This document shows, piece after piece, positions 9,098 to 28,771 of a DNA stretch of 64,000 nucleotides (position 1 is the stretch's first letter; each line of letters opens with the position of its first letter). A program made the translations under genes and the position numbers. The notes beneath the pieces are model-generated. The model searched no databases and was not told the DNA's origin. It saw only the letters and a program-made list of their open reading frames with translations. This stretch comes from Gammaproteobacteria bacterium (lineage in GTDB: Bacteria; Pseudomonadota; Gammaproteobacteria; Eutrophobiales; Eutrophobiaceae): the NCBI GenBank assembly GCA_965243205.1, contig CBDEUK010000002.1:1555689-1619688 (forward strand), written 5' to 3'.

Positions 9098-9113
9098 TGC
9101 AGTCATCATGCCA
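9098..9113 (-). promoter_or_regulatory. Candidate sigma-54 (-24/-12) promoter of the pilin gene
   Basis: The minus strand reads TGGCATGATGACTGCA, with GG and GC at the exact consensus spacing (TGGCAC-N5-TTGCW), about 45 nt upstream of the pilin ATG. Confidence 0.5.
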
Positions 9114-9253
9114 GAGTACAAGTCATTGATTATTAAGTAGAAACATATTTATATATAGTCTAAACTGGCAATATTTCATCAAAAGTTGTCGAAATATCAA
9201 CAGTTTTATTTTAGTTGTTTTTAAACAAACTCTTTAAAATATAACTAAACACA

Positions 9254-11293: not shown

Positions 11294-11298
11294 TTAAT

Positions 11299-12109: not shown

Positions 12110-13786
12110 ATGAATAATAAGAAAACAAATTCTCGTTTTACATTACAAACCATTAGCCTAGTTCTAATGCTAGAACTATTACATTTAGCCGTTTGGTTTG
12201 ATTTTGGAAGCTTAATTTCAAAATCGCTTTTCTTAGCTCATTTTGGATTTTTCTTAATATGGCAACCAATCTGGCAGCAAAGTAAAAGCTTCACACTTGT
12301 AAATACCTCGGTTTTTATTACTGCTATTTTCTGTTTCGTTTACTGGATTAATTTATGGTTAATCGTCGGATGGGTTATTTTATTGGTTGGCTTTATAGGT
12401 GGCATTTATAAACAACGCCGTACAGAACATTTATTTTATATGTTTGTGTTGATATTTTTAATTTCTGAATTGTTAATTGGCTGTAACACACAAATATTCA
12501 ATATCGTATTAAATATTCAAGAACAAAAAATCTTCAGCTATGGAATGCTCTATATTCCTCTATTACTATTTTTATTTAAACAAGAAACGAAAAAACAACT
12601 TATATCTGTTGACCTATTAAGAGCGATTAGTAGCGCATTACTTATCAGTATATTGACATTAGGAAGCTTATTAGTGATGTACCATACTGGGACTAATTAT
12701 TTTAATGCGTTAATTAGAACAATATTATCTATTGCTGTAAGTCTTATTGTTATCAGTTGGTTATTATCACCAAAACTTGGTTTTAGTGGTTTATCGCAAC
12801 TCTGGTATCAATCATTATTAAATATAGGAACACCTTTCGAAAAGTGGTTGCACGATTTATACATGATCAATCAAAGAATTGATTCACCTGAATTATTTAT
12901 CGAGGAAACGATGGATGAATTAACAACTGTTAATTGGGTTTCCGGTATTGAATGGCAATTACCACATACTAAGAATAAAGCTGGCGAAGAAAGCAAATAT
13001 ACTATCCCTATTAAAATTAATGATCTAAATGTCACTTTTCATACACATATTCTTGCTGGAGGTGCTTTAATTTTACATTCACGGTTATTAATTAGGCTTA
13101 TAGAAAATATGTACACCGCTAAAGTACAAGAACATAAATTAGCACAACAAGCACATCTTAAAAATATACATGAAACTGGCGCGAGAATTACGCATGATAT
13201 AAAAAACCTTCTACAGTCACTAAATATGATGACTGCTATGGCTTCAAAAAATAATCTGGATACTGATAAAAAACAAAAACTTATTAATCAACAATTACCA
13301 AATATTTCTCAACGTTTGCAACTTGCATTGAATAAACTAGAAACACCAGACATTACTGAAGAAATAATTATTAAACCCATTAATAACTGGTTAGAAACTT
13401 TAAACTCTAGAATCGAATCAAATACAGTTACTATTCATTCTGATATTAGAAGCAATCATCCTATCCCTATGAGTATGTTTGATAGTGTCGTCGATAATCT
13501 ACTAGAGAATGCCTATTTTAAGCAGCAATTAGATAATTCGATTAAAATTGAAATAACTGTTATTAGTAATGAAAAAGAAATCTCTATTCGCTTTGCTGAT
13601 AACGGAGATGCAATACCACAATATATAGCTGATAGATTGTTTAATGAAATAATTGCCTCAGAATCAGGCTTAGGTATAGGTTTATACCAAGCCGCTAAAC
13701 AAACAAAGCAAAACGGCTATGATTTTATTCTCTCAAACAATACTAATGGGAAGGTTGAATTTTCACTTATAAGAGAATTAGGGTAA
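12110..13786 (+). CDS. Polytopic sensor histidine kinase (PilS-like)
   Basis: About 6-7 N-terminal TM helices. H-box ITHDIKNLLQSL, N-box DNLLENAYF, G-boxes FADNGDAIP and ESGLGIGLY. Confidence 0.7.
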   Translation: MNNKKTNSRFTLQTISLVLMLELLHLAVWFDFGSLISKSLFLAHFGFFLIWQPIWQQSKSFTLVNTSVFITAIFCFVYWINLWLIVGWVILLVGFIGGIYKQRRTEHLFYMFVLIFLISELLIGCNTQIFNIVLNIQEQKIFSYGMLYIPLLLFLFKQETKKQLISVDLLRAISSALLISILTLGSLLVMYHTGTNYFNALIRTILSIAVSLIVISWLLSPKLGFSGLSQLWYQSLLNIGTPFEKWLHDLYMINQRIDSPELFIEETMDELTTVNWVSGIEWQLPHTKNKAGEESKYTIPIKINDLNVTFHTHILAGGALILHSRLLIRLIENMYTAKVQEHKLAQQAHLKNIHETGARITHDIKNLLQSLNMMTAMASKNNLDTDKKQKLINQQLPNISQRLQLALNKLETPDITEEIIIKPINNWLETLNSRIESNTVTIHSDIRSNHPIPMSMFDSVVDNLLENAYFKQQLDNSIKIEITVISNEKEISIRFADNGDAIPQYIADRLFNEIIASESGLGIGLYQAAKQTKQNGYDFILSNNTNGKVEFSLIRELG

Positions 13787-14707
13787 ACGCCCTGCTTGAA
13801 CAAGTTTGCTTTTTAATACCTGAGGGGAAATCCATATAATTTGATCATCAATACCAAGTTGACTTATACCTCCTGCGACAGCACCACCAGGCGACACAGC
13901 TGGCCCAGGGTTTATATAATTAGATAATATAAATATTCCATCAGAATCGCTATTTTCAGCTTCATTGCATAAAAAAGCTGGTGTTGGTGTATCTATTAAT
14001 CCTGTACCTGGATTTAAGGTTCTAGTGACATTTTCTCCATGCGAAACAACAACAGCAAATACATCTTGTGCCACCGGAACAAATGGCGCTACACAAACGG
14101 TTCCATCTTGTATAGTGATATTTCCTACAGGACACATGTCAATCGTCGCTAAATTCTCGGTTGAATTTAATGGGCAATTAACAGGAACGCTTATAGGATT
14201 AAGATTACCAGGGGTTCCAGTGCCAACAAAATCAGCCACATAATCCATAACAGAATATGTAAACCAACTTTCCCATTCATCAAATTCTCCAACCCCTAAA
14301 GTAACCCAAGGTAAATTGCCCTCAATAGGTAATACTCCTTGATTTCCATTGCCAAGCACAGCTGGGGTAGGATCAGCAGCACATTGTTGTGTACCGGCAG
14401 GACCAGGAATTAAATCTTCAGTACCATCATTTAAATTACCTACAGCAACCAAATTGCAGCTTCCAACTCCTGCATTTCTGCAATCAGGACATGGCAATCG
14501 ACCATTCGTTATAGCAAAACCATAAAGAGCTTCTTCAATTGTTTTCAAGCTTTCTTCTGTTTTAACACGCCGCTCTTGTTTTATTCCTTCTCTTAATGGA
14601 ACTAATAGTCCTGCAAGTAGCAAACCCATAATTACTAGGACAACGGTCATTTCAACTAAAGTAAAACCTGTTACTTTCTTTAATATAGTGTTTGATATTT
14701 TATTCAT
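13778..14707 (-). CDS. Large Cys-rich type IV pilin-like protein (minor pilin)
   Basis: Prepilin leader KKVTG|FTLVEMTVVLVIMGLLLAGLL. 309 aa with more than 10 Cys. The start overlaps the upstream gene by 4 nt. Confidence 0.7.
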   Translation of the reverse strand: MNKISNTILKKVTGFTLVEMTVVLVIMGLLLAGLLVPLREGIKQERRVKTEESLKTIEEALYGFAITNGRLPCPDCRNAGVGSCNLVAVGNLNDGTEDLIPGPAGTQQCAADPTPAVLGNGNQGVLPIEGNLPWVTLGVGEFDEWESWFTYSVMDYVADFVGTGTPGNLNPISVPVNCPLNSTENLATIDMCPVGNITIQDGTVCVAPFVPVAQDVFAVVVSHGENVTRTLNPGTGLIDTPTPAFLCNEAENSDSDGIFILSNYINPGPAVSPGGAVAGGISQLGIDDQIIWISPQVLKSKLVQAGRLP

Positions 14708-16770
14708 GGTTGAGTGGTATTTAGCATTATATTAATTTGATCATTATAGGAATTTGATAAAAGCTGTTTATCAAAATTTAAATTGCCGAGCCCTCCAATA
14801 CTTTCAAAATAATCTGTGAAAGTTGTATTAGGTCTTGCCGTTGGGTTTGGCGCTACTGCTGGTGTTAAATCCTGTCCAGCAATCATAAGTAAAACTCTAT
14901 TATCATTAATTTGATTTAGCCCATTGGAAGTTAAATTCAAGCAATTACCACCTGCACCTGGCACACAAATCGCTGAAGGAGGAAAAGCAGAGTTTATAGA
15001 ACCTGGCAATGGTTCTACAACCAAAACTGGATAAGCAACATAAACCATATGATGCCAATTATTAGCCACAAACCATGTTGGTAATACCGGAGGAGATTCA
15101 CCAACTGATGAATATGATGAATCACCATCAATATCAATTCCTAATGTATCAATATGATGATCAAGATTATTTATATTCATCGTTGTAGTGGGTGGAAATG
15201 GAACTACTCCTTGTACTGTTAATGTAGATTGTCCAAGTTGTACAGGCGGATTAGGGTTAATAGTTCCTACATCAGTAATTTGGATAGTCAGCTGATTTGG
15301 AAAGTTTCCATTGATACTAAGATTACGTCTCAAATGGGCTGCAGCAGTGGGAGGAATATAATTTACGTTTGAACCATCATCTGTGTATGTAATAGAGTAA
15401 GTTCTTACAAAATTATCATAGCATGTACCAGTATTATCGTTTATACAAATCGTTGTTGAACTAATATCAGATGAACAATTGAATGTATTACGTCCAGCAT
15501 TAATAGCGGAATTCCAAACACAATTAATATTATTTACTCCTAAAGCACCTGCAGTCATAGGAGAATTAATAGGAAAACCTGCGGGTGGAGGTATTATATT
15601 CACACCGCAATTTAGTGGGAAGTCATTCGTGCTACAGTAATAAGTCTCAATGCAATTAGAATCCGTTAAACAACTGACATTTGGATCAGCGGGATTAGGC
15701 CCGACAAAACCTGCGGCTGGCAGTCCACTCCAACTAGCATCAAAATTAACTGAAGCAATATTATAAACCGTATTATCTACAAAAACTGGTAACTGACCAA
15801 ATGTAGTGTTTATGACACCTAAAGAATTTACATCAGCTGTTGTAGGATCAAATGGTTTTAACCACGGTAATCCATATACATCATCACAATTAAATGGAGC
15901 AATTAGACAATTTGGATCATCATCAAAAAAATTATTATCGCCATCATCATCAACGCCATTAATATTTTGATCATCCCTATCTGGATCTATTCGATAATAT
16001 CTCAAGGCACTCGTTGCTTCATTTAGTACTCTTTTTTCTACCGCTTTCATTAACTCTTGGCGAGTAATTACTAATATTCGATCATTAAAATTTGTACCAT
16101 CATCACCAGGAAGAAAAGAAATAAAGTTTCTATCATTACCATCTGAATTTACTGAATCTAAATAGGCTGTATAGTCATTTACACCTAGTATTCGGTTTTG
16201 ACCAGGTAATGCAGCACCAGGAGAAAAGATAATCGCAACAATATCTGGGCCATTAATATTGTTATCAACAACAAAAGGCCCATCAATATTTGCAATGGCT
16301 TGATCGTCTGAAATAGTATCGCTGTTATGATTAGGATTAACAGGTAATGCACCAGTATTCCTATAATTGTCGGCTACCACGTACCATAAATGTTCTCCAG
16401 AACCATCTTGTAACTCTTCTATTTCCAAAGTTTTATAGGGTAACCAACCTACTGCACCTCCTGTAGAAAGATTTCCACACCCAAGATTATTAGTTTGTCC
16501 ATCATCATTATTATCTGGACATGGCAAATAACCTGGGCCTCTTAAAGTTGTAGCACCGGTTCTTTCTGGTACTGATACAGCATATGCAATTAATGCCTCT
16601 TTAGCCCTTTGGAGAGCATCGTAGGTTTTTTCTATATTTTCACGGTCACGAACTTTTGCATTAAGCTTTGAGACAAGTAGAAAAGATGAGCCAACAATCA
16701 TTACTAGCACGAAAGCTAATAACGCTGCGCCTCTTTGAGATTGGATTTTATTGTTTAGGCTAAACAACAT
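14704..16770 (-). CDS. PilX-N-like pseudopilin fused to a large Asn/Asp/Pro/Cys-rich extracellular domain (candidate pilus tip adhesin, MshQ/PilY1-like role)
   Basis: The N-terminal motif QSQRGAALLAFVLVMIVGSS has a PilX/MshP-type QRGA leader and no Glu5. An Asp-cluster DPDRDDQNINGVDDDGDNNFFDDDPN looks Ca-binding. 688 aa. Confidence 0.5.
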   Translation of the reverse strand: MLFSLNNKIQSQRGAALLAFVLVMIVGSSFLLVSKLNAKVRDRENIEKTYDALQRAKEALIAYAVSVPERTGATTLRGPGYLPCPDNNDDGQTNNLGCGNLSTGGAVGWLPYKTLEIEELQDGSGEHLWYVVADNYRNTGALPVNPNHNSDTISDDQAIANIDGPFVVDNNINGPDIVAIIFSPGAALPGQNRILGVNDYTAYLDSVNSDGNDRNFISFLPGDDGTNFNDRILVITRQELMKAVEKRVLNEATSALRYYRIDPDRDDQNINGVDDDGDNNFFDDDPNCLIAPFNCDDVYGLPWLKPFDPTTADVNSLGVINTTFGQLPVFVDNTVYNIASVNFDASWSGLPAAGFVGPNPADPNVSCLTDSNCIETYYCSTNDFPLNCGVNIIPPPAGFPINSPMTAGALGVNNINCVWNSAINAGRNTFNCSSDISSTTICINDNTGTCYDNFVRTYSITYTDDGSNVNYIPPTAAAHLRRNLSINGNFPNQLTIQITDVGTINPNPPVQLGQSTLTVQGVVPFPPTTTMNINNLDHHIDTLGIDIDGDSSYSSVGESPPVLPTWFVANNWHHMVYVAYPVLVVEPLPGSINSAFPPSAICVPGAGGNCLNLTSNGLNQINDNRVLLMIAGQDLTPAVAPNPTARPNTTFTDYFESIGGLGNLNFDKQLLSNSYNDQINIMLNTTQP

Positions 16771-16820
16771 TCTTTCTTAACCTTCCTTACTTTTCCAATC
16801 AGAAACTAAGATAGTTATTA

Positions 16821-17357
16821 TTAATTTTGAGCTTCAGAATCTAAAGTTTCTGGAGTATAGGTTTCGCCAACTTTGAGTGTAACATTGGTTTTATTATCGG
16901 GTAGTTTTACCGTAACACTATCATTATGAATCGTACGATTCTTCACAGTAATATTTTCTTCGATCATACCACCTTCATAGGTATTATTATCATTTATCCA
17001 AACGGTATTATTCCCTTTTTTACGTGAAACAATTCCCTTTAAGCTAATAGGTTCTTTAAGCACTTCAACCTCTTCTACTTCTTCCTCTTCCCAAAAGAGG
17101 CCTTCTTCTTCAAAGCCTTGAGTAACTTCTTGTCCTTCAGCAGTAATAGCTTGTTCATCTTTTACTTTAGAAGGATCTTTAATCTGAACGTCTTCGTATT
17201 GAGTAACGTGATGCTGAGATCTCATAGGTTTTGATATTCGTAAATCCTCCAACATGGAACGTTGTGCCGGTGAAGTAAACAAACGACCTAGCTGATCAAC
17301 ACTATGTACTGATGTTGAAACTAACATTAAAACCAGAAATGAATAAAATACTTTCAT
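16821..17357 (-). CDS. Small secreted acidic protein (MshK/PilP-like position)
   Basis: Signal peptide MKVFYSFLVLMLVSTSVHS and a Glu-rich linker EEEEVEEVEV. The assignment rests on position only. Confidence 0.35.
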   Translation of the reverse strand: MKVFYSFLVLMLVSTSVHSVDQLGRLFTSPAQRSMLEDLRISKPMRSQHHVTQYEDVQIKDPSKVKDEQAITAEGQEVTQGFEEEGLFWEEEEVEEVEVLKEPISLKGIVSRKKGNNTVWINDNNTYEGGMIEENITVKNRTIHNDSVTVKLPDNKTNVTLKVGETYTPETLDSEAQN

Positions 17358-17369
17358 AATATCAAACCA

Positions 17370-18017
17370 TTAAATCGATAACTCTGTACCATCACTTTTT
17401 TTAATATTAAACCATTCCAGTTCACACTTGGCATCTACATTACTAGTGGTAGTACTACGTTTAATCACATCATTTTTTCGAACCAGTTCACAGCTACGTA
17501 TCGAATAAATTCCATTAGCATTCTCATTTAATTTTTGCATTAGATTGACTAAATCACCTTCATGTAAAAGCTGTAAATTAAGATCCATGCTACTGACATA
17601 AACTTTAAAACTACCTTGTGTAACAGGAAAACGATTATCGTATTCTGTTTGGGAGTTAATTTGGTAGCCTACTGAAGGGATCTGAATTTCTTGCCCTAAA
17701 TTCCTTAATGTTTCTATCCAATTTAGGCGATGTTCACGACCAATAATGCCTATTTCATATAATGCAGCATAACTTGGATAAAAGTCCCGAATATTTTTTT
17801 CCTCTTGATCCACGGCTAAGTAACGTTGGCTAATATTTTGAAATTGCGTTTTATGTTTACTGTATTCTGCAAACATTTCACCACGAAAATAGTAGCTAAA
17901 CCAGATCATCAAAGCTGCGATTGCGATGCTAACCAATAAAACAATTAAAGCGCCACGTATCATTGAAAATTCAATGTTACTATTTGTACTCTCACTCATT
18001 GGGCACCCCCAAAGCAA
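17370..18017 (-). CDS. PilO/MshJ-like inner-membrane pilus assembly protein
   Basis: Single N-terminal TM helix (IVLLVSIAIAALMIWF) followed by a periplasmic domain. Lies between the PilM/N-fusion gene and the secreted protein. The real start is likely the internal MSEST. Confidence 0.45.
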   Translation of the reverse strand: MLWGCPMSESTNSNIEFSMIRGALIVLLVSIAIAALMIWFSYYFRGEMFAEYSKHKTQFQNISQRYLAVDQEEKNIRDFYPSYAALYEIGIIGREHRLNWIETLRNLGQEIQIPSVGYQINSQTEYDNRFPVTQGSFKVYVSSMDLNLQLLHEGDLVNLMQKLNENANGIYSIRSCELVRKNDVIKRSTTTSNVDAKCELEWFNIKKSDGTELSI

Positions 18018-19599
18018 TTCTTAATGTAAATTTAGCTTCTTTTTCTAGTTTTTCTACACTACCTTGCAAACTTGCTTCAGAACTAATATCCATAGGAAAT
18101 TCTTCGACTGTAACACTTTCAATATTTTCTTTACTTCTTAGTGCTTCGGCAAGATCATTCACCGTTTTAATCGCTGTTCTAAAGTCACCATTGAAATTGG
18201 CTATGCGGGCTTCAAAAGTCGCTATTTGATAGTAAAGATTACTGTTTTGGTTTTGTATATAATTCGCTACGGGTATAGTCGCATATAGATTTGTAACCGC
18301 TCGTGAATTTTGAAACTGATCATTTGGATCTAAGCTATGGTTCCATTGTAAATTTTCCAGAATAACTTGAGGATACATTTTTAAACTTGAACCAATAACT
18401 TTTAATATAGGTTCAGGATCCGTTTTAAATTTTTCTAAGTTACCCGCTATTTCAACCACTGTTTTTATATCGTTAGGTTCAATGGGCGTTTTAGGAAGAC
18501 CTTCTCGTGCAATATTAAATCGCTCTTGATAAAACTCCGTTTTCTTTATTGCTGACATGCTATCCTGCTTATAACTCACTGCGTTCATCAAAAACCAACC
18601 ACTCAAAATTGTACTGCTTAATAATAACAATGCACTTGCAGCATACATGCCCACACGCATTTTGCGCATAGTGGAGTAGCGAACCTCATTGGGATTAGCA
18701 TAGGCATTTTTGGCACCTTTTTTAAATAAATGATAAGCAAATAACTTATCACTAAATGGTGTTTTTAAAGAAAAATCCGTATTAGCGATTTTCGCCATAT
18801 AATTTAAATCGATCAATTTATAAGAGATAGATTCGGTATCTTGTAGTTTCTCTTTTAATTCTTTAAGCAATTCACCTTCAGTTAAAAAATAGACGTTTAA
18901 TTGTTCATCATTGCTCACTAAACGCATACTGTTTAAATAGCGGTAAATTTTTTCTATTTCTGAAGAAATGATTGGACCATAAGGTGTTGTGCCGTAACGT
19001 GGCATTTTTACCATACGGCTTATTTTTAAGTCTTCACCTTGAAAAAAAGACTGTCTTAAGCCACTGACGCTCTGCATAGTGACTAATAAGGTTTTTTCTT
19101 GTCGGTTAGGTAAAAATTCAAGAATGTTCTTACTGAATAAAGCAACTGATGTAACAGAGACAACTGGGTATTTATATTTTTCTAACAACTGTAACCAAGG
19201 TTTAACATACGATGTCTCACCAATTGAAGACAGTAAGACATTATCATCGCGTCTTCCTTCAGCTTCTCGGTTTTGAGTTTCGTCATAAACATAATCAGCA
19301 CCACGAAACAATCGTTCTTTTTTCCGATCTAATACAGCTTTACGATCACTACCATAAACATGAGGAATAGTGTCTAAACGAAATTCTTCTTCAGCAACGT
19401 CAACTAACACATAAGTCGTTTCAGGGTCTGATTCAGATAGATAACGTTCAAATTGAATTCGACCATTCTCCTTAGTATCAAATAAATATGAATTGATAAT
19501 TTCTCCTCGATACCATTGATAGGCAACCATCTTCTCAGCGCCTAATAAGATTACTCGTCTAGGAAAAATATCAATAGTCGATTTTAGTAATGAGATCAT
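17992..19599 (-). CDS. MshI-like pilus assembly protein (PilM-like cytoplasmic domain fused to a PilN-like TM/periplasmic domain)
   Basis: 535 aa. One TM helix near residue 330 (VGMYAASALLLLSSTILSGWFL). The architecture and position after the platform gene resemble MshI. Confidence 0.5.
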   Translation of the reverse strand: MISLLKSTIDIFPRRVILLGAEKMVAYQWYRGEIINSYLFDTKENGRIQFERYLSESDPETTYVLVDVAEEEFRLDTIPHVYGSDRKAVLDRKKERLFRGADYVYDETQNREAEGRRDDNVLLSSIGETSYVKPWLQLLEKYKYPVVSVTSVALFSKNILEFLPNRQEKTLLVTMQSVSGLRQSFFQGEDLKISRMVKMPRYGTTPYGPIISSEIEKIYRYLNSMRLVSNDEQLNVYFLTEGELLKELKEKLQDTESISYKLIDLNYMAKIANTDFSLKTPFSDKLFAYHLFKKGAKNAYANPNEVRYSTMRKMRVGMYAASALLLLSSTILSGWFLMNAVSYKQDSMSAIKKTEFYQERFNIAREGLPKTPIEPNDIKTVVEIAGNLEKFKTDPEPILKVIGSSLKMYPQVILENLQWNHSLDPNDQFQNSRAVTNLYATIPVANYIQNQNSNLYYQIATFEARIANFNGDFRTAIKTVNDLAEALRSKENIESVTVEEFPMDISSEASLQGSVEKLEKEAKFTLRIALGVPNE

Positions 19600-20776
19600 A
19601 AATAGGTCCTAAAACTGACAACATTATCCAACCAACAATTAACCCTAAAAATAGAGTCATCATCGGTTGCACCATCGATTGTAAACGTTCGATTGCTTCG
19701 CGCACATCGCGAGAATAAAAATACCCAACATTATGTAATGATTCTTCGAGTGCCCCGGTATTTTCTCCTACTCGTATCATTCTAAGTACTAATGGTGGAA
19801 AGAGATTTGTAGACTCAAAAGCATTGCTCAATGTAGCACCATCGGCTATTTGTTGTCCGACTTCACGCATCGCTTTTGAAACGACTTTATTACCAGCAAT
19901 CTCTTCACCAGTCCGAATACATTCAATAATGGTAATACCAGATGCATACATAATGGCAAAAAAACTCGTCAATCGAGTTAAAATAAGTTTTTTAAAAATC
20001 GGGCCAATGATTGGCAGCTTCAATTGAATGGCATCAACCGTCTCTTGGAAATCATCATTAGTTTTATAACTAACAATAGCAATAGCAATTAAAATAACAG
20101 GTAAAAAAACAACTACATACCAATAATCCACAAAGAAATTAGACACTGCTATTAATACTTTAGTATGTGTAGGTACCTCTTGTCCCATAGTTTTTACAAA
20201 CAGTAGTAATTCGGGTACAACAAAAATCATCAAGAATGTTATTGCAGCAAACACAAGCGTGCCAACAATAATTGGATATATAAATAGTTTCTTAGTGTGA
20301 GCCATTTGCTCATCTTGCCACTTTAAGTTTTCACCCAACTTTTCAAAGATGGTTGATAGATCACCTGTCTGTTCACCTGCTTTCACTAAGTTTGTGAATA
20401 CATTACTAAACACTGCGGGAAACTGTTGCATGGCTTCAGATAATGTTTGACCACCTTCGACCAATTCGATCATCGCAGTAAGTACTTCTTGTAAACGTGG
20501 GTTATCAGTACTGTCACGTAAATCTTGCAAACTATCGAGAATAGGCACGCCTGCCCGTGAGGTTTGTTCTAAATGAAAACACAACGTAATTAAGTCACGA
20601 CGATTAACACCTTTACCAGTTAAGCTAGAACCTCTGGTATCAATCTCTTTATAGTTGATGAGATCCAGTCCCATCTTTTTCAAACGCATTTCTAAATCAG
20701 CAACATTAACTGCGTCAGCGTTTCCATTATGAATGGAGCCAGATTTATCAATTGCTTTGTATTCGTAGAAAAACAT
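19571..20776 (-). CDS. Type IV pilus / T2SS platform protein (PilC/MshG/GspF family)
   Basis: 401 aa with two GspF repeats and 3 TM helices. Motifs include MIELVEGGQTLSEAM and MIRVGENTGALEESL. Confidence 0.9.
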   Translation of the reverse strand: MFFYEYKAIDKSGSIHNGNADAVNVADLEMRLKKMGLDLINYKEIDTRGSSLTGKGVNRRDLITLCFHLEQTSRAGVPILDSLQDLRDSTDNPRLQEVLTAMIELVEGGQTLSEAMQQFPAVFSNVFTNLVKAGEQTGDLSTIFEKLGENLKWQDEQMAHTKKLFIYPIIVGTLVFAAITFLMIFVVPELLLFVKTMGQEVPTHTKVLIAVSNFFVDYWYVVVFLPVILIAIAIVSYKTNDDFQETVDAIQLKLPIIGPIFKKLILTRLTSFFAIMYASGITIIECIRTGEEIAGNKVVSKAMREVGQQIADGATLSNAFESTNLFPPLVLRMIRVGENTGALEESLHNVGYFYSRDVREAIERLQSMVQPMMTLFLGLIVGWIMLSVLGPIYDLITKIDY

Positions 20777-20778
20777 TT

Positions 20779-22509
20779 CTATTTCTGAACTATACGTTTG
20801 GTTAAATCGACGACTCTTGATACTTCATCAATACTGGTTGTGCCATCTAAAACTCTATCCGATCCTACGTCGGCTAATGTTTTAAACCCTTTGGAAATCG
20901 CCATACGTAAAATTTCACCTTGAGTTCCACCACGGGCAATTAAGTCATCTATATCATCATCGAGTCTCAAAATTTCTAAGATTGCTACTCGACCTTTATA
21001 ACCTGTGTTATCACATTTATCACAACCTTTAGCCTTATAGACTTGTTTATCTTTATCACCAGAACGCAGTCCAAGTAAGTTACGTTCTATATCAGTAATC
21101 ACATAAGGTTCTTTACAATGCTCACAAAGCTTTCGTACTAAACGTTGAGCTAAGATACCAATAATATTTCCGGATAAGATATCGGGTTTAATGCCAATAT
21201 CTAATAGTCTAGGCATGGCACCAACGGCCGAATTGGTATGCAATGTTGAAAATACTTGGTGACCAGTCATAGCAGCACGAAATGCCATGTTTGCTGTATC
21301 TTCATCACGAATCTCACCGACAAGAATAATATCAGGGTCTTGACGCATGATAGAACGGATACCATTAGCAAAATCCAAACGTCCAGATTCTTGCACTGAG
21401 CTTTGACGAATCATTGTTGTTGGGTATTCAACAGGATCTTCCAACGTCATGATGTTAACTTGTTCAGTATTTAAATAATTTAACACCGAGTAAAGCGTGG
21501 TGGTTTTACCACTACCCGTTGGACCCGTAACTAAAATAATACCTTGAGGTCTTGCCACCATCACTTTTAAAGCATTAGATGCTTCATCATTCAACCCAAG
21601 TTTCTCTAAAGAAACGATACCTTTTTGTCTGTCAAGTACACGTAGAACGATGTTCTCTCCATGTACCGTCGGTAAAGTTGAAACACGAAAATCAACTTGG
21701 CGACCTGAAAGCGATAAAGAAATTCGACCATCTTGTGGTGCGCGAATTTCGGCTATATCAAGATTAGCCATAACCTTTAAACGTACAGCAATGGCCGACC
21801 AATAATTTTTATGTAAGCTTCGAATTTGACGTAATACGCCATCAATACGATAACGAAACCGTAAGAAACCTTCTTCTGGTTCAAAGTGAATATCCGATGC
21901 ACCGCGCTTTACTGCATCTGATAGCAATGAATTCACTAATCTAACAACAGGCTGGCTGTATTCTTCTGTATCCGCATCAAGACTTTGATAATCAATTTCA
22001 CCGGATTCAATCTCTCGTAAAATACCATCAACGGAAAGTTCGAAACCATAAAACTGATCCAATGCCTTTTCGATCTCAGCTTCACCTGCAAGCACTGGAA
22101 CAACGTCAGTCGATCGACCAACGACAGCATCTAATTGATCTAATGCTACAACGTTATAGACATCTGCCATTGCAACCGTTAGGCGATTATTAACGGCATC
22201 GAACGTTAAAGGTAACGCTCTTAACCTTCTTGCTAAATCTTTAGGTACCATTGCGATCGCTTCAGGATCGGCAACGGAACGACTGAGATCAACAGTATCA
22301 CGACCGATAACACCACCAAGAATATCATTGATAATGGCTTCGGTTGCGAAACCTAATTTAACTAAGATACGGCCAAGATGTTCTTTACTTTTTCGTTGCT
22401 CGGTTAAGGCAATTTCGATTTGATCGCTGGTTGCAACACCACGGCGAATAAGCATTTCGCCCAGTCGTAAACTCTTTTTAGGCATCTTAGTCATTAAACT
22501 TTCCATCAA
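20779..22509 (-). CDS. MshE-type pilus extension ATPase (GspE family) with an N-terminal c-di-GMP-binding MshEN domain
   Basis: Walker A GPTGSGKTT, Asp box, His box, and a tetracysteine CEHC..CDKC. The N-terminus has tandem motifs RLGEMLIRRGVATSDQIEIALTEQ and HLGRILVKLGFATEAIINDIL. Confidence 0.9.
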   Translation of the reverse strand: MMESLMTKMPKKSLRLGEMLIRRGVATSDQIEIALTEQRKSKEHLGRILVKLGFATEAIINDILGGVIGRDTVDLSRSVADPEAIAMVPKDLARRLRALPLTFDAVNNRLTVAMADVYNVVALDQLDAVVGRSTDVVPVLAGEAEIEKALDQFYGFELSVDGILREIESGEIDYQSLDADTEEYSQPVVRLVNSLLSDAVKRGASDIHFEPEEGFLRFRYRIDGVLRQIRSLHKNYWSAIAVRLKVMANLDIAEIRAPQDGRISLSLSGRQVDFRVSTLPTVHGENIVLRVLDRQKGIVSLEKLGLNDEASNALKVMVARPQGIILVTGPTGSGKTTTLYSVLNYLNTEQVNIMTLEDPVEYPTTMIRQSSVQESGRLDFANGIRSIMRQDPDIILVGEIRDEDTANMAFRAAMTGHQVFSTLHTNSAVGAMPRLLDIGIKPDILSGNIIGILAQRLVRKLCEHCKEPYVITDIERNLLGLRSGDKDKQVYKAKGCDKCDNTGYKGRVAILEILRLDDDIDDLIARGGTQGEILRMAISKGFKTLADVGSDRVLDGTTSIDEVSRVVDLTKRIVQK

Positions 22510-24404
22510 TTGACACTAAGTGCGTCAATTCTTGCCAAGATGTTAGAGGCACTAAAACTTGAAGGTTTATTTTTAGAAAGATTTAAAGCTGCTCGATAAT
22601 ACTCTATGGCCGCTTTAGATTGCCCCATGTGATCCAAACTAATCGCCAAATTCAAAGCATAATCAGCATTACCTGGTTGGCGACTGTATGCATCGAAAAA
22701 AGCCTGTTGAGCTTCTGGCCATCGTTGTTGTTTAGAATAAAGGTTTCCAAGAGAAAAGTGTAAACTTGGATTCTCAGGGTTTTGTTGAATTAAATCTTTA
22801 ACCGTTGATTCGCTAGTAACGTTACCAACTTGATTTTGTAAATTCAAAATCGAAACTTTCGCTACTGAGTCTTTAGGATTTAATTTTAATAATTTTCGAT
22901 AAATTTGATATGCACTTTGAGTATTACCTTTTTTTAATTCAATGGCTGCCATGCCTAGTAATGCATCACGATTATCAGGTGTTTCTTTTAATGAAATCCT
23001 ATATAACGAAGAAGCGACATCATAATTACCCTCTTGGAACGCATTAAAAGCACGTTTGTTGGTATCTAATTCAGGCCGTGGTTTTTTCTTCTTACTAATT
23101 TTAATCATTGAAGGCGAAACAGGAGCAGCAACAGGTGAGAAAACCACTTCTTCTTTTACGATTTCTTTTGTTATTGGTTTTCCATCAATAGACGGTGTTA
23201 TAGATTCTGTTGGAGTATCTAAATTTGCAACGGATGTTGCTGCGGTTTCTATTGGCTCTTCAGAACTATCGCTTGAAGTCGTTATTTCCACTGTCTCAAC
23301 AGGTTGTTCAACTACTTCATTTGAAGTCACTGGTAACTCAGTAGTTGATTTATCTTCATCATGAGAAATATATTGAGTTTCAATTTCCTCGGTTTCAGGC
23401 ACATTCACACTTGTCACGGCTGCCTGATTAGGCGTTACTAATTCATCTAGACTTTTAATTAAAGGTTCTTGTTTAGCTTCAACGCCCTTCGCAACAGACG
23501 GTGACAATACTTTTGGAACATCTGGGGTAATCTTGTATTGAATAAATAAACCGGCTGCTACCAATAGCAATAAACCTAAGGCAGCACTTAAACCGATCAT
23601 GAAACGATTGCCCCAGTTTTCAGATTTTGATGCTGCAAAAACAGTACTTGCTACAACTGGTGTAGGTTGCCCTTCATGTTGGCCAATATCACGCAACATT
23701 TGTGTAACCGATCCACTATCAAGTGCCTCTAACTCCAGTGAAGGATCGGTTAACTGGCCTAAATTCGTTCGATAGTTCTGTTGCTCTTGAGAATCACTAA
23801 CTTGCTTTTCAATCGTAGGTTCAGAAATCTCTTCTTCGTTTTCATTTTGGTTTTCTAACGTTTCTAATTTTAGTCCAAGAGTTTCATCATCGAGATTATC
23901 TTCAGCGATATCCATTCTTAATTCATCGGTGACATCTGAAAAATCATCACGACTAAACTCAGATGTTTCCATTGTTCTCTCGATGATTGTTTCATCGGTC
24001 ATATCGGAAATTAGCTGAGTATCTTCAAGGTCTAGATCAATATCATCTAATTCTTTTTCGCCTAATGTTAAAATCGTATCGTCGTCAACATCTCCAAGGT
24101 TTTGGTCATCCATAACGACTGTGTTTTCTTGTTCTATCTGAGTTGTTGAAAAAGTCGGTTCGTCATCAGCAAGAGTGAAGTCTTCATCTTTGTCTTGCAA
24201 TTCCATTGAAAGAGAAACTTCCTGAGTAAGTTCTTCAGAACCATCTACTTCATTTGTCATTGTCGTACTCAAAACTTGAGTATCATCTTCGACTATAGAA
24301 TGCTCACCAGTGGAAAGGATCGGATGCTGGCCAGTTTGCCGACGTTTTGCAGCTTCCTTCTTTTCCTTTTCCGCCTTTTTCAAGGCATCCATCAACAGAC
24401 TCAC
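22506..24404 (-). CDS. TPR-repeat pilus biogenesis protein (MshN-like) with a long acidic low-complexity N-terminal half
   Basis: C-terminal TPRs (AFNAFQEGNYDVASSLYRISLKETPDN...). About 250 aa of D/E/T-rich sequence, then a TM helix IGLSAALGLLLLVAAGLFI. 4-nt overlaps at both ends. Confidence 0.6.
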   Translation of the reverse strand: MSLLMDALKKAEKEKKEAAKRRQTGQHPILSTGEHSIVEDDTQVLSTTMTNEVDGSEELTQEVSLSMELQDKDEDFTLADDEPTFSTTQIEQENTVVMDDQNLGDVDDDTILTLGEKELDDIDLDLEDTQLISDMTDETIIERTMETSEFSRDDFSDVTDELRMDIAEDNLDDETLGLKLETLENQNENEEEISEPTIEKQVSDSQEQQNYRTNLGQLTDPSLELEALDSGSVTQMLRDIGQHEGQPTPVVASTVFAASKSENWGNRFMIGLSAALGLLLLVAAGLFIQYKITPDVPKVLSPSVAKGVEAKQEPLIKSLDELVTPNQAAVTSVNVPETEEIETQYISHDEDKSTTELPVTSNEVVEQPVETVEITTSSDSSEEPIETAATSVANLDTPTESITPSIDGKPITKEIVKEEVVFSPVAAPVSPSMIKISKKKKPRPELDTNKRAFNAFQEGNYDVASSLYRISLKETPDNRDALLGMAAIELKKGNTQSAYQIYRKLLKLNPKDSVAKVSILNLQNQVGNVTSESTVKDLIQQNPENPSLHFSLGNLYSKQQRWPEAQQAFFDAYSRQPGNADYALNLAISLDHMGQSKAAIEYYRAALNLSKNKPSSFSASNILARIDALSVN

Positions 24405-26155
24405 TATCTAGCCCCTACAGTTCCAGATAGTGCATTATTAGATTGAAGAAAAGGTTTGTATAAATCTAAATCCCCATCAACACTTGGGTCTTTAATAACG
24501 ATAGGACGAAGGAATATCACTAATTCTGTTTTTTGGGTTTCAATTCTTTTGGAGCTAAACGCTCTACCTACACCAGGAATATCTTTTAAACCAGGAATAC
24601 CTCGATCTAAGTCACTCGTCTCATCGCTCATCAAGCCACCCAGAACTGCTATTTCCCCATCATTCATTCTTAACATTGACTCCATCTCACGAACAGCAAT
24701 GACCGGAACATTATTTGGAATATTTGCCGGTAACTGAGGTTGGGGATCTCGCACATCTGCTATTCGCCTTGAAATCGTTGGACGAACATTCAAGATGATG
24801 TCATCGTTTTCACTTATATATGGGGTCATACTCATTACAAGCCCTACAGGAACAGTCTTAGCAGTTGTGTCAATTGCAGGTTGACCAACACCAGCAAGAG
24901 TTGCTACACCTGGCTCAGCATCAATTTCAAAATAAACTAAATTTTCAACCACTTTAAGTACTGCGGTTTGATTATTTAGCACCATCATTTGCGGGCTAGA
25001 TAAGACTTTAGTATCACCAAACTCATCCAATAAATTAACCGTTGCAGTTAAAGCATCGCCTTCACCACCAATATCCGTATCTTGATATCTTAAAAATCCG
25101 CCAGTTTGTTCATTGCTACCTGTTGGAGTGGTAGATACTAAACCAATAGCAGCAGAACCTATGGCAGAAGCTGCTGAGATACCTGTAGTCAAACCAGCTG
25201 TGCTGAATGAAAGGCCCGCTAAATTATTGATAAAAGACCAATCGATACCTGCCTGATAATTATCATTTAATGTAACTTCAACAATAGTCGCTTGAACCAA
25301 TACTTGTCTATTCGCACTATTCATCACCTGGTCGATAAAACCTTGAACCAGCTTATGTTGTTTACTAGTAGCATTCACCGTTAAAACACCACTTTCAGGA
25401 CTTGGAATCACATTATTGGTAATGGTGATTTCACCCTCTTGACCACCTGAATTGTCTTCAACTTCTTCTCCGATGATTGCCTGAATATTTCGTACCAAAT
25501 TTTCCCAAAAATTGTTGAATGATTGGCTACGCACGTCAGTTGTAGAATTATTATTACCACCACCACCTGCACCACCTCCTGCAGAACCACCAGCAACATC
25601 ACCAGTTCCTGTTGTTGCAATCTGAGTAGCAATCGTAATCTGGCTATCGGTTTCCCGTGCAATATTCACATAATCGATTTTATAAGATTTCAAATAAGCC
25701 TGATCCGCCGATACCAATAAATTGTTATTTTGATACTCATATCGAATATCAACTTGGCGTGATATGCGATCAAGGATTTGTGGCATAGTTTGCTCAACAG
25801 CATTAAGAGTCACTGTGCCTTCTATTCCAGGTGCAATATCGACATTCACATCCGCATCTCGAGCTAGAGCGAATAAAAGTTCCCGAACAGGAACATCGTT
25901 AACTACGACAGTGTATTTTTCTAATTCAGGAGCGGTTTCTGAAGGTTCAGGCAAAATAGGTTCTTGCTGAACAACTTGAGGTATAGAAGCTGGATCAACA
26001 GGCATTTTTTTCGCTACCGACTGAGAATCCGTTGTGATATGGCCCGGAGAGTTGTCCATAGGCTTGGGTTCGATTTGGGCACAGGCAACGAGAAAACTAG
26101 ATAAAACGCTGAATATAATAATGTTTTTCATAATATTAGCTTCACTTCGTGACAA
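24404..26155 (-). CDS. Secretin (MshL/PilQ/GspD family)
   Basis: Signal peptide with lipobox LVAC. Secretin C-domain motifs VPVGLVMSMTPYIS and IPGLKDIPGVGRAFSSK...ELVIFLRP. Confidence 0.85.
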   Translation of the reverse strand: MSRSEANIMKNIIIFSVLSSFLVACAQIEPKPMDNSPGHITTDSQSVAKKMPVDPASIPQVVQQEPILPEPSETAPELEKYTVVVNDVPVRELLFALARDADVNVDIAPGIEGTVTLNAVEQTMPQILDRISRQVDIRYEYQNNNLLVSADQAYLKSYKIDYVNIARETDSQITIATQIATTGTGDVAGGSAGGGAGGGGNNNSTTDVRSQSFNNFWENLVRNIQAIIGEEVEDNSGGQEGEITITNNVIPSPESGVLTVNATSKQHKLVQGFIDQVMNSANRQVLVQATIVEVTLNDNYQAGIDWSFINNLAGLSFSTAGLTTGISAASAIGSAAIGLVSTTPTGSNEQTGGFLRYQDTDIGGEGDALTATVNLLDEFGDTKVLSSPQMMVLNNQTAVLKVVENLVYFEIDAEPGVATLAGVGQPAIDTTAKTVPVGLVMSMTPYISENDDIILNVRPTISRRIADVRDPQPQLPANIPNNVPVIAVREMESMLRMNDGEIAVLGGLMSDETSDLDRGIPGLKDIPGVGRAFSSKRIETQKTELVIFLRPIVIKDPSVDGDLDLYKPFLQSNNALSGTVGAR

Positions 26156-26411
26156 CGATTGAGTCCTTATAGATTATCTTTCACATTATAATAGCACGAT
26201 AAATTCATGTGAATTAAGGATTTTTTGCTTATTTTGCTTAACTTATGACCAGTCGACAAAATTCGATAATAGTAGCCTTATTCTCGAAAAAAATTCGCAG
26301 CAACAAGAATTCTATTCAGGATTTATTCCAAATAAAAAATTAATAAACCACAACGGCTGATATTGATTATAACTTCGCCTAAATGTTATTAAATTCTTAT
26401 AAATTTGCAAA

Positions 26412-27320
26412 TTAAGAGACTATTTTATCGTATGGAAAAAACCATAAAATGATCAGTAAAAATAATAATAAAGTGCCAGCTATGAATAGCCATCGATATC
26501 GTCTCCATCCTGAGACAAATTCACTATCAGCAGCTGCAGCTCGAACATGTTTAGGCAAAACAGACATCGTATTATCAGCATATGCGGCCAACATAGCTTT
26601 ATCAGATAAAATATTGATTCTACGCAATAGGCCTTTCGAATAGTGGCCAATTTCTTTTATCGCGCTTTTACTAAATACATCAGCACCTCGATAACCACAT
26701 GCCCTTAAGCGAGAATTTATATATTCACGGATATCAGGTACTTCAAAAGGAGCCAAGTTAAAACTGTAGGTAATTCTTTCTTTCAACTGACGGATCTCAG
26801 GTTTTGAGATCATCTCATCTAATTCTGGTTGACCAAATAAAACTATCTGTAGCAATTTGTGTTTATTGGTTTCTAAATTACTTAATAATCTAATTTCTTC
26901 TAACGTTTGAATCGTCATGCTCTGAGCTTCTTCAACAAAAACCACAACCTGCTTATTTTCAGCATGTTTTTGTACTAGATAGTGTTGTAGTTCGTTCATA
27001 ACCTTTAAACGGTTATCATCGGTTTCTACATCCAGTTGTAACTCAAACGCAACAGCATGAGGGATTTGTTCAGGACTGATACTAGGGTTTGCTAGATAAA
27101 CAATTTCAACTGAATCATCTAAATCGTGCTCAAGCATGCGACTAAGCATGGTCTTACCTGTGCCTACCTCACCAACAACTTTGACAATACCTTCACCATT
27201 TACCACAGCATAAATCAATGCTTCTAAAATAGCGCCACGATTACCACCAGGAAAAAACAAGCTAGTATCTGGCGTTATCTTAAACGGAGGCTGATTCAAT
27301 CCGAAATAATCATAGTACAT
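26412..27320 (-). CDS. ExeA/GspA/MshM-like AAA+ ATPase
   Basis: Walker A GEVGTGKT. C-terminal TM helix WLFIAGTLLLFLLIILWFF. Confidence 0.7.
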   Translation of the reverse strand: MYYDYFGLNQPPFKITPDTSLFFPGGNRGAILEALIYAVVNGEGIVKVVGEVGTGKTMLSRMLEHDLDDSVEIVYLANPSISPEQIPHAVAFELQLDVETDDNRLKVMNELQHYLVQKHAENKQVVVFVEEAQSMTIQTLEEIRLLSNLETNKHKLLQIVLFGQPELDEMISKPEIRQLKERITYSFNLAPFEVPDIREYINSRLRACGYRGADVFSKSAIKEIGHYSKGLLRRINILSDKAMLAAYADNTMSVLPKHVRAAAADSEFVSGWRRYRWLFIAGTLLLFLLIILWFFPYDKIVS

Positions 27321-27322
27321 GT

Positions 27323-28771
27323 TTAAGGCTCTTCTATTGATAAACGTTGTAAACGACTATAAAGCGTCGTTCGATTCACACCTAATAACCTCGCAGCTTT
27401 ACTTAAATTACCTTCTGCTTTTTTTAAAGCTAATTTTATATACCTTACTTCCCACTGATCTAATGTCCTGTCAAGATTAAAATGATCACCAAACAACTCT
27501 TGTTCTAACACTTGATCATTTATTAGGGTTATATCACCTATACTATCAGCATCAATACTGGTTTCTAATTCATCATTTAATTGTTGCAATGTCACTTCTT
27601 GTGATGGGTACTTCGCACCCAAACGAATCACTATATTACGTAATTCTCGTACATTTCCAGGAAAAAAATACTGTTTAAATCGTTCTTTTGCATATTTATC
27701 AAGCATGAAAGATTGTTTACCAGAAGCATATAATCTACAAAAATGTTCTAGTAAAATAAAACAATCATCGCCGCGTTGTCTTAACGGCGGCACATGAATC
27801 GTTAATACGCTGAGTCTATGGAATAAATCCTTACGAAAGCGGCCTTGTCTAACTTCTTCCCTTAAATCACGATTGGTAGCAGCAATAATTCGCGCATTTG
27901 AAAATTGCGCTGTAGTTTCACCAATTGGATGATACTCTCCACTTTCCAAGACTCTCAGTAATTTTGATTGTAAGTCTAATGGCAACTCACCAACTTCATC
28001 TAAGAATAAACAACCATCGTTTGCTTCGTGAAAGAAACCACTTTTATTTTCAGTAGCACCTGTAAACGAACCTTTTTTATGGCCAAACAATTGCGACTCA
28101 AGTAATTCTGAAGTAAAAGCGGCACAATTCACCGTCATATACTTACCATTACTTCTTGAGCTTAGTTTATATAATTGTTCAGCGACTAATTCTTTACCAC
28201 TACCTGACTCACCTTCTACTAAAACCGGAAACGGTTGTTCCGCAAATTGATCTATCAAACTTTTTAAGGTTTGAATAACTTGGCTTTCACCGAGAATAGG
28301 CTGGCTAACATCAGCTTCGGCAATATCTTCAGCACCTAAAATCATAACCTGATGATTTAATCGAGCTTGCAGTAACTCTAAATCACAAGGTTTTGGGATG
28401 AAATCAACAGCACCTAATGTCAAAGCGTGTTGAATGTTTTGTTGTTCATTCTGTCCTGATAAAACCAAGGTTTTTATCTTACGATTAAAACCTAATAAAT
28501 CTTTTATCAAAGAAAAACCTTCTTCTGGGCTGTGGGGTTTTGGCGGCAAACCCAAATCAACTAATGCTATATTAGGTTTGTGCTTAATTTTTTGCAGTTG
28601 AGTTTTTGCTTGGTCACGAGTCGATGCAGTAATCAATTCGTATTCGTCTTCAAGCAGCATAGCTAATGAATCCAAAATTAATGGATCATCATCAACTAAT
28701 AACAAACTGTGTTTTTGAGATGGTTTTGACATGATCAGTCTTAGTGAGTAATTAAGACAACCTCCAAGCAT
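27323..28771 (-). CDS. Sigma-54-dependent response regulator (NtrC/PilR family enhancer-binding protein)
   Basis: REC domain (LLLVDDD), AAA+ domain (GESGSGKE), GAFTGA motif (GSFTGA), C-terminal Fis-type HTH (AARLLGVNRTTLYSRL). Confidence 0.9.
   Translation of the reverse strand: MLGGCLNYSLRLIMSKPSQKHSLLLVDDDPLILDSLAMLLEDEYELITASTRDQAKTQLQKIKHKPNIALVDLGLPPKPHSPEEGFSLIKDLLGFNRKIKTLVLSGQNEQQNIQHALTLGAVDFIPKPCDLELLQARLNHQVMILGAEDIAEADVSQPILGESQVIQTLKSLIDQFAEQPFPVLVEGESGSGKELVAEQLYKLSSRSNGKYMTVNCAAFTSELLESQLFGHKKGSFTGATENKSGFFHEANDGCLFLDEVGELPLDLQSKLLRVLESGEYHPIGETTAQFSNARIIAATNRDLREEVRQGRFRKDLFHRLSVLTIHVPPLRQRGDDCFILLEHFCRLYASGKQSFMLDKYAKERFKQYFFPGNVRELRNIVIRLGAKYPSQEVTLQQLNDELETSIDADSIGDITLINDQVLEQELFGDHFNLDRTLDQWEVRYIKLALKKAEGNLSKAARLLGVNRTTLYSRLQRLSIEEP

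Follow-up and report, generated by a model that had tools for sequence, protein, structure and literature searches.

A conserved gene module of uncultured Gamma- and Betaproteobacteria for a probable type IV filament machine, from an uncharacterised lineage akin to the MSHA, type II secretion and type IVa pilus group

A stretch of 64,000 nucleotides (nt) from a Gammaproteobacteria bacterium (assembly GCA_965243205.1, contig CBDEUK010000002.1, positions 1,555,689 to 1,619,688 of the forward strand), hereafter the window, contains a conserved gene module for a putative type IV filament machine (Table 1). An original prediction, made from the letters alone, had flagged positions 13778-28771 of this window as a 15-kb unit of eleven genes, related to the mannose-sensitive haemagglutinin (MSHA) pilus operon and headed by a sigma-54 enhancer-binding regulator. 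All eleven open reading frames (ORFs) are found in the ORF listing where they had been predicted, co-directional on the minus strand. Pfam and NCBIfam matches to the six profile-assignable genes agree with the proposed identities, and the region is a type IV filament gene cluster as proposed. Because these six genes have strong profile matches and the orthologues are colinear in 80 of 80 related loci, we conclude that the eleven ORFs are not a product of chance.

Table 1. Features of the filament module, listed from the regulator end (aa, amino acids; TM, transmembrane).
Feature	Position	Strand	Evidence or remark
NtrC-type sigma-54 enhancer-binding regulator	27323..28771	-	Sigma54_activat 217.8 bits, Response_reg 57.3, HTH_8 45.9
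MshM/ExeA-like AAA_22 ATPase	26412..27320	-	AAA_22 95.4 bits; C-terminal TM at residues 277-295
Sigma-70-like promoter candidate TTCACA-17-TATAAT	26185..26213	-	54 nt before secretin ATG at 26131
MshL-type secretin	24404..26155	-	Secretin 121.3 bits, Secretin_N_2 28.4
TPR protein (MshN/TadD-like position)	22506..24404	-	TPR families at residues 450-615
Assembly ATPase with N-terminal MshEN c-di-GMP-binding domain	20779..22509	-	T2SSE 446 bits, MshEN 59.9
Inner-membrane platform protein (GspF/PilC/MshG family)	19571..20776	-	T2SSF 170.1 bits, two repeats
GspL/MshI-like 535-aa protein	17992..19599	-	AlphaFold2 fold; no Pfam, NCBIfam or PDB sequence match
215-aa bitopic inner-membrane protein	17370..17999	-	one TM, residues 22-40 of the 215-aa ORF (17370-18017)
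178-aa small secreted protein	16821..17357	-	N-terminal signal-like sequence read by eye
688-aa giant minor pilin	14704..16770	-	GspK/PilX-like N-terminus without Glu5; variable C-terminal part
309-aa Cys-rich minor pilin	13778..14707	-	prepilin signal G/FTLVE (/, cleavage); N_methyl 26.1 bits
Convergent sensor histidine kinase	12110..13786	+	HATPase_c 28.1 bits; PrsK 53.7 bits, weak
ABC-2 type permease	11299..12069	-	ABC2_membrane_3 28.9 bits, just under cut-off; five TM segments
241-aa conserved protein, one N-terminal TM	10568..11293	-	no Pfam/NCBIfam match
Membrane-bound class III nucleotidyl cyclase	9254..10564	+	Guanylate_cyc 79.3 bits; about five TM segments
Upstream activator site candidate	9162..9206	.	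inverted repeat, 21-nt arms, containing TGTCGAAATATCAACA at 9187-9202
Sigma-54 -24/-12 promoter TGGCATgatgaCTGCA	9098..9113	-	47 nt before 262-aa pilin ATG at 9050
262-aa type IV pilin, candidate major subunit	8262..9050	-	N_methyl 30.8 bits
ABC transporter ATPase (DrrA/GldA-like)	7458..8174	-	TIGR01188 146 bits, GldA 134.6, both below cut-off

The flagged boundaries were too narrow. The conserved module is about 21 kb long and reaches some 6 kb further, down to about 7458, adding genes for a histidine kinase, an ABC-2 permease, a 241-aa protein, a class III cyclase, a 262-aa pilin and an ABC transporter ATPase. The housekeeping genes metK, ahcY and metF lie upstream of the regulator end. From metF onwards the order is regulator, MshM-like ATPase, secretin, TPR protein, assembly ATPase, platform protein, the 535-, 215- and 178-aa proteins, the 688- and 309-aa pilins, kinase, ABC-2 permease, 241-aa protein, cyclase, 262-aa pilin and ABC ATPase, with the kinase and the cyclase on the opposite strand. 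The kinase gene is convergent with the 309-aa pilin gene and overlaps it by 9 nt.

The predicted tight junctions are present, with gaps of 2 nt between regulator and MshM-like genes (27320/27323) and between ATPase and platform genes (20776/20779), and with overlaps of 1 nt for secretin/TPR (at 24404), 4 nt for TPR/ATPase (22506-22509), 29 nt for platform/535-aa (19571-19599), 26 nt for 535-aa/215-aa (17992-18017) and 4 nt for 688-aa/309-aa (14704-14707). If the 215-aa gene starts at the ATG at 17999, a better fit to its orthologues of about 206 aa, its overlap shrinks to 8 nt. The one exception to the predicted tightness is a gap of 256 nt between the MshM-like and secretin genes, or about 280 nt if counted from the likely secretin start, an ATG at 26131 that yields the signal peptide MKNIIIFSVL.

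The regulator has receiver, AAA+ and HTH_8 domains and scores under the cut-off of every named NCBIfam equivalog. The MshM-like protein scores 214 bits against TIGR03015, which is under the cut-off; the MshM of Aeromonas is likewise sub-threshold, at 232.6. The secretin marginally passes the MshL model TIGR02519 (250.6 against a cut-off of 250.2), with lower scores for GspD (164.5) and PilQ (115.5), and the NCBIfam models rank in the same way for Aeromonas MshL. The TPR protein has a TM segment at residues 270-288 and gives a weak match to PrsT, as Aeromonas MshN also does; its N-terminal ~270 residues are without a recognisable domain, and it is far longer than the 394-aa Aeromonas MshN. The assembly ATPase passes the cyclic di-GMP (c-di-GMP) motif model NF053729 (56.2 bits, cut-off 38; motif RLGEMLIRRGVATSDQIEIALTEQ) and falls below the cut-offs for GspE (543.6 against 630.25) and PilB (541.4 against 675.65), as the platform protein does for GspF (303.1 against 424) and PilC (about 255 against 700). 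Identity to the Aeromonas proteins is 40% for MshM, 38% for the ATPase, 28% for the platform protein (against MshG) and 24% for the secretin.

For five proteins (535, 215, 178, 688 and 241 aa) neither Pfam nor NCBIfam yields a match, even with Pfam loosened to E≤1 for the 535-aa family and to E≤5 for four of them; the 309-aa pilin matches no family beyond its prepilin signal. Searching PDB sequences with profiles of the 535-, 215- and 178-aa families returned nothing meaningful, and the 688-aa protein has no PDB sequence match either. Five of the conserved proteins are without a named or characterised homologue. The AlphaFold model of the 535-aa protein (pLDDT 78) comprises an actin-like domain, one long TM helix at about residues 320-338 and a C-terminal alpha-beta domain. 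Top Foldseek matches of the actin-like domain are PilM (5eoy), EpsL (1yf5, the cytoplasmic GspL domain) and FtsA, with E values of about 2e-9. As modelled, the protein has the architecture of GspL/MshI, a cytoplasmic PilM/EpsL-fold domain followed by a TM helix and a periplasmic domain, in keeping with the PilM/N fusion that had been proposed for it. The family counts 2,702 clusters at 50% identity.

The two genes that follow encode a bitopic protein and a small secreted protein. The 215-aa protein, kept in 72 loci, has no Pfam or PDB match and no alignment by hhalign to the MSHA proteins of Aeromonas; its topology and position suggest a PilO/GspM-like role. The 178-aa protein, kept in 56 loci, has no family or PDB match; it shows an acidic linker, a C-terminal beta-rich domain and an invariant G..V.R...W.N motif, and by the same kind of analogy it may act like PilP, MshK or GspC. 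Two loci, L061 (about 10300-15700) and L062 (about 12200-15300), have an additional 3-5 kb inserted between their 215-aa and giant-pilin homologues, an interval in which no 178-aa homologue was detected.

The pilin-like character proposed for the 688- and 309-aa proteins holds: both have N-termini that read as prepilin or pilin, and structure prediction supports the assignment of the 688-aa protein. Orthologues of the giant pilin in L001-L080 range from 345 to 1159 aa and conserve the first ~240 residues. The same N-terminal module also occurs in Betaproteobacterial proteins of 390-1140 aa. A G/F[TS]L[IV]E signal (/, cleavage) is found in most of the 54 orthologues of the 309-aa pilin. Over about 100 N-terminal residues the 309- and 688-aa proteins are paralogous (BLASTP E 2e-6), with an LPCPD motif common to both. 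We regard the giant pilin as a candidate tip or adhesin subunit.

A six-frame motif scan located a third pilin, of 262 aa, outside the flagged region and 4.7 kb past the 309-aa gene, where it adjoins the ABC-transporter genes. Its N-terminal 24 residues (GFTLVEIAIVLVIIGLLLGGILKG) are nearly invariant in Gammaproteobacterial orthologues, which also conserve a Cys pair 5 residues before the C-terminus; the C-terminus differs in the two Betaproteobacterial orthologues. The gene is syntenic in every locus that reaches that far. Because a nearly invariant N-terminus and a conserved C-terminal Cys pair are expected of a major subunit, the 262-aa protein is likely to be that subunit. For all three pilins, similarity to the msh pilins of Aeromonas is confined to the N-terminal signal and helix.

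To survey the module in other genomes, we scanned with the 535-aa family, which yielded 131 species-level genomes; 80 loci, all from metagenome-assembled Gammaproteobacteria, were retrieved and scored for synteny by tblastn with the window proteins. Gene order, orientation included, is identical in 80/80 of these loci, and the arrangement from metF to the ABC ATPase recurs in essentially all loci of sufficient length. In all, at least 131 species-level Gammaproteobacteria genomes carry the module, among them some with the label Thiotrichaceae or Thiotrichales; many Rhodocyclales and Burkholderiales have it as well. Burkholderiales and Rhodocyclaceae metagenome-assembled genomes (MAGs) carry the same module, kinase included, amid unrelated flanking genes. 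Shared ancestry alone could account for the Gammaproteobacterial synteny; because the module is also kept in Betaproteobacteria with different neighbours, it behaves as a functional unit. Source names of the homologues are all 'hypothetical protein' from MAGs, and we found no paper that describes this gene arrangement.

The genes beyond the flagged region share in this conservation. The ABC-2 permease gene is syntenic in the Gammaproteobacterial loci and in the Burkholderiales locus L082; the 241-aa protein is syntenic at 36-57% identity, with a 243-aa gene in the equivalent place in L082. The ABC ATPase gene is syntenic too and lies 87 nt downstream of the 262-aa pilin gene. The cyclase gene is syntenic, is present in the Rhodocyclaceae locus L083 and is lost along with the regulator and the kinase.

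Fifty loci with a full upstream flank were scored for the regulator and the MshM-like gene, and 48 with enough downstream sequence for the kinase. Regulator and MshM-like genes are both present in 42/50 loci and both absent in 8/50; the kinase is present in 38/48 and absent from all eight regulator-less loci and from two that have the regulator (L048, L049). Because the MshM-like gene is co-lost in these eight loci, it travels with the genes for regulation and not with those for the machine. In these eight loci (L011, L032, L055, L057, L062, L067, L075 and L079) the regulator, MshM-like, kinase and cyclase genes are lost together; the secretin-to-pilin block is kept, as are the ABC genes and the 262-aa pilin wherever the locus reaches them.

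Nearly all orthologous loci with the regulator or the kinase share the sigma-54 element found in front of the 262-aa pilin gene, at a distance of about 50-95 nt from the pilin ATG. The element precedes the pilin in two Betaproteobacterial loci as well (Rhodocyclaceae, Burkholderiales), and is absent in 5/5 retrievable loci without regulator and kinase. About 90 nt upstream of the element lies a 16-bp palindrome, TGTCGA-N4-TCGACA, which with up to 2 mismatches has a single match in the window, at 9187-9202. Of the loci with the regulator, 18/20 have the palindrome, placed at -141 to -197 relative to the pilin ATG, and of those without it 0/5; the enrichment over the rest of the same loci is about 250-fold. 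Because promoter and palindrome co-vary with the regulator, the 262-aa pilin promoter is its evident target.

These observations bear on the claim that the regulator heads one operon. A single transcript of all eleven genes, headed by an autoregulating regulator, would suit the co-directional genes, their mostly overlapping or 2-4 nt junctions and the lack of a convincing terminator within the cluster. However, the 256-280 nt gap before the secretin, the only large intergenic gap, holds the sigma-70-like site with the best score (11/12) in the 9-29 kb region, and the eight loci that have lost the regulator and the MshM-like gene start at the secretin and keep the block down to the pilins. Moreover, neither the regulator nor the secretin has an intergenic sigma-54 site or a palindrome upstream of it, and the one palindrome of the window stands before the distal pilin gene. 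The single transcript is thus unlikely, and the claim of one operon headed by the regulator probably does not hold. The co-loss of regulator, MshM-like, kinase and cyclase genes, together with the sigma-70-like site in the MshM-secretin gap, argues for at least three transcription units. An Rfam search revealed no riboswitch near the pilus genes, the c-di-GMP riboswitch included.

In its sequence features the regulator most likely acts on the pilin gene in the manner of PilS-PilR rather than heading an operon. Six or more TM segments span residues 10-219 at the N-terminus of the kinase, the activator is of NtrC type, and the pilin gene is preceded by a sigma-54 promoter and a site upstream of it. 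PilS, which has six TM segments, is a sensor of pilin in the membrane, and its partner PilR works at pilA together with sigma-54 (PMC6058289). The likeness to the PilS-PilR systems of Pseudomonas, Myxococcus and Geobacter extends to the multi-TM kinase, the NtrC-type activator, the -24/-12 promoter, some 50-65 nt ahead of the pilin ATG, and the upstream palindromic site; here, unlike in those systems, the kinase gene is convergent with the pilus operon and does not adjoin the regulator gene. In Myxococcus xanthus the genes run pilS-pilR-pilA-pilGHI, with an ABC transporter (PMC6060248), and the ABC-transporter genes that flank the 262-aa pilin gene resemble pilA-pilG-pilH-pilI by position, an analogy of arrangement.

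For comparison with MSHA we used the canonical locus of the Aeromonas caviae chromosome (L081) and an MSHA-like locus of a Legionella adelaidensis plasmid (L085). Both keep the I-J-K-L-M-N-E core order; the canonical order is mshI-J-K-L-M-N-E-G(-F) (PMC4624765). As had been predicted, the order here departs from that of Vibrio and Aeromonas, running M-L-N-E-G and then three alignment-like genes. The label 'I-J-K-like' for these three proved to be an analogy of topology or fold only: searches by BLASTP, hidden Markov models and hhalign against the Aeromonas and Legionella proteins found no MshI, MshJ or MshK orthologue, the only resemblance being that of the 535-aa protein to the PilM/GspL fold. 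The Legionella locus lies at 255102-280775 of NZ_LR134433.1, a 365-kb record typed as mobilizable, and holds four pilin genes, I/J/K-like genes, mshL and an AAA ATPase. Its MshE-like ATPase is 50% identical to Aeromonas MshE with no platform gene annotated after it, and its neighbours look like core genes (uvrB, cytochrome oxidase, ubiE/ubiB, tatABC).

The module might be an ordinary member of the MSH family, that is, an orthologue of the Vibrio/Aeromonas MSHA with shuffled genes. The NCBIfam score pattern of the window proteins nearly equals that of the Aeromonas MSHA proteins, down to an MshL score above cut-off and the c-di-GMP motif, and likenesses to the MSHA of V. cholerae and Aeromonas include the MshL-type secretin, the MshM-like ATPase encoded with it (absent in the 8/50 loci; MshM is dispensable in V. 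cholerae, PMC4624765), the TPR protein adjoining the secretin, the MshEN-bearing ATPase and the platform protein. In the models of Denise et al. 2019 (PMC6668835), mshA, mshE, mshG and mshL as well as mshM are mandatory, and MSH systems sit in a single locus, which always lacks a prepilin peptidase. The module is likewise a single locus, and we found neither a prepilin peptidase nor a retraction ATPase among the scanned window ORFs, as the original prediction had stated. The missing peptidase, being normal for MSH (PMC6668835), does not set the system apart. With at least 4/5 mandatory genes of the MacSyFinder MSH model, the tool may call it MSH. Under the same models the system could be called either MSH or generic, and because 884 systems were left 'generic' in that study (PMC6668835), unclassified filament systems are to be expected.

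Sequence relationships weigh on the other side. In a small and crude bootstrapped neighbour-joining tree of 18 ATPase sequences, read alongside an identity matrix, the ATPases of this system (Gamma- and Betaproteobacterial, 59-81% mutual identity) form their own clade at 100% bootstrap, whereas its grouping with MshE receives 11%; the MshE proteins of Aeromonas and Legionella pair at 100%. Identity of this clade is 35-44% to MshE, GspE and PilB alike; that of the ATPase to MshE is 36-39%. The MshEN domain and the c-di-GMP motif fit the 'MshE-type' label, but by identity the protein is no closer to MshE than to GspE or PilB, and on so small a tree a place in the MshE clade is still possible. 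Moreover, secretin and platform protein show the low identities to Aeromonas given above, and MshA, the MshB/C/D/O/P/Q set and the I-J-K-L-M-N-E-G(-F) core order were not found. MSHA (mshIJKLMNEGF and mshBACDOPQ) has seven msh pilin and adhesin genes and this module three unrelated pilins; the module also brings two-component and sigma-54 control of its own, besides genes for an ABC transporter and a cyclase. We consider ordinary MSH membership very unlikely. As the original prediction had it, this is no canonical Msh or Pil locus but a variant distinct from both.

The scores described above also fall short of the type IVa pilus (T4aP) models, PilQ being scored against a cut-off of 284.35, and there is no PilMNOP set here, nor PilT or PilD in the scanned ORFs; the machine itself is not a T4aP. 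A rival reading is a system that resembles type II secretion (T2SS), in which a short periplasmic pseudopilus would push cargo through the secretin with no surface pilus. Some of the best NCBIfam matches under threshold are to GspE, GspF and GspD, the 535-aa protein has the exact GspL architecture with EpsL as a top fold match, ATPase and platform genes are adjacent, the giant pilin lacks Glu5 as GspK does, and the N-termini of the 309- and 262-aa pilins match GspG/GspH models; in addition, an ExeA-like ATPase accompanies some T2SSs (PMC4624765, table) and the window has no retraction ATPase. Against this, every Gsp score is below its curated cut-off (for GspD, 351.35), no GspC, H, I, J, M or N family is detectable, the secretin scores higher as MshL than as GspD, and the ATPase carries an MshEN domain and falls outside the GspE pair in the tree. 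The module also has no candidate cargo genes, and a conserved pilin under PilSR-like sigma-54 control, with a C-terminal disulfide, is typical of the major subunit of a pilus. We judge a secretion system of this kind improbable.

A link to PEP-CTERM/exosortase systems was suggested by best matches to PrsR, PrsK, PrsT and TIGR03015. We rejected it because all four are below cut-off and the canonical MshM and MshN of Aeromonas give the same matches; no exosortase was found among the scanned ORFs.

By its gene content the module is a type IV filament system whose parts are of known types. We think it probable that the encoded machine spans the envelope and belongs to an uncharacterised lineage of type IV filaments, akin to the MSHA/T2SS/T4aP group. 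In the model we propose, the machine operon would run from the secretin to the 309-aa pilin, probably from its own sigma-70 promoter. The MshL-type secretin and the TPR protein would form the outer-membrane conduit, and the ATPase, platform, GspL-like, 215-aa and 178-aa proteins the inner-membrane and periplasmic assembly complex, in which the 535-aa protein may couple the ATPase to the periplasm. The hexameric ATPase is predicted to drive filament extension gated by c-di-GMP through its MshEN domain. The 309- and 688-aa pilins may prime and cap a surface filament whose subunit would be the 262-aa pilin, and the giant pilin, being variable, is the likely adhesin. The multi-TM kinase would control the NtrC-type regulator, which would bind TGTCGA-N4-TCGACA and activate the sigma-54 pilin promoter, so that pilin supply would be set by kinase, regulator and sigma-54 according to PilS-PilR logic.

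Several observations weigh against the filament machine. A length of 262 aa is large for a major pilin. Only three pilin-like genes (309, 688 and 262 aa) are present, whereas the general pattern in type IV filaments is a trio of I, J and K, to which a large adhesin may be added (PMC13533445). Either the tip complex here is a reduced one or other loci encode more pilins. The 64-kb window, among the ORFs scanned, encodes neither PilD nor PilT, and the roles suggested for the 215- and 178-aa proteins are analogies of topology and position only. The sigma-70-like site is a consensus match only, and the sigma-54 consensus is not enriched across the window (30 matches against 29.8 expected from shuffles), so that the sigma-54 promoter call draws on position and cross-species conservation. 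Finally, all homologues for which a source is named are from metagenome-assembled genomes.

We also entertain, as a possible if somewhat doubtful extension of the filament-machine reading, that the module represents a separate, unnamed type IV filament family on a par with MSH, T2SS and T4aP. Such a family would be marked by its own ATPase clade and its own GspL-, O- and P-like proteins outside Pfam, and by a minor-pilin set of two paralogues in which a hypervariable giant pilin would replace the I/J/K(+PilY1/MshQ) tip complex. It would further comprise an ABC transporter and a dedicated control circuit of kinase, sigma-54 and cyclic nucleotide, and would be widespread in uncultured Gammaproteobacteria, Rhodocyclales and Burkholderiales.

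Other features of the window lie outside the module. An S-adenosylhomocysteine (SAH) riboswitch (31235-31341, minus strand; Rfam RF01057, 56.6 bits) is located directly upstream of ahcY (29800-31230) within the metK-ahcY-metF cluster, with a MetR-like regulator gene and metE divergent at 33373-36642. A 6S RNA gene (RF00013, 66.4 bits) occupies 56531-56708 on the plus strand. Near the module end, 6842-7360 encodes a 172-aa secreted acidic protein, short of which the related loci end. Just past the module are a Ser/Thr protein kinase (5380-6831, plus strand), which has a TM segment and resembles TPR proteins in its C-terminal region, and an Rsd-like sigma-D regulator (4597-5061, minus strand). 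A 385-aa protein with an autotransporter beta-domain (47574-48731, plus strand; Pfam 77.6 bits) is encoded among housekeeping genes.

The GspL-like family alone comprises about 2,700 clusters at 50% identity and is annotated nowhere, and the carriers of the module are all unstudied. The system offers a natural test of the minimum number of minor pilins for a type IV filament, and lets one ask whether a giant pilin without Glu5 can replace the I/J/K and adhesin tip complex. The predicted circuit of kinase, activator, 16-bp palindrome, sigma-54 promoter and pilin is clean and directly testable. For uncultured bacteria that are abundant in groundwater and the sea, the module likely encodes an organelle of attachment.

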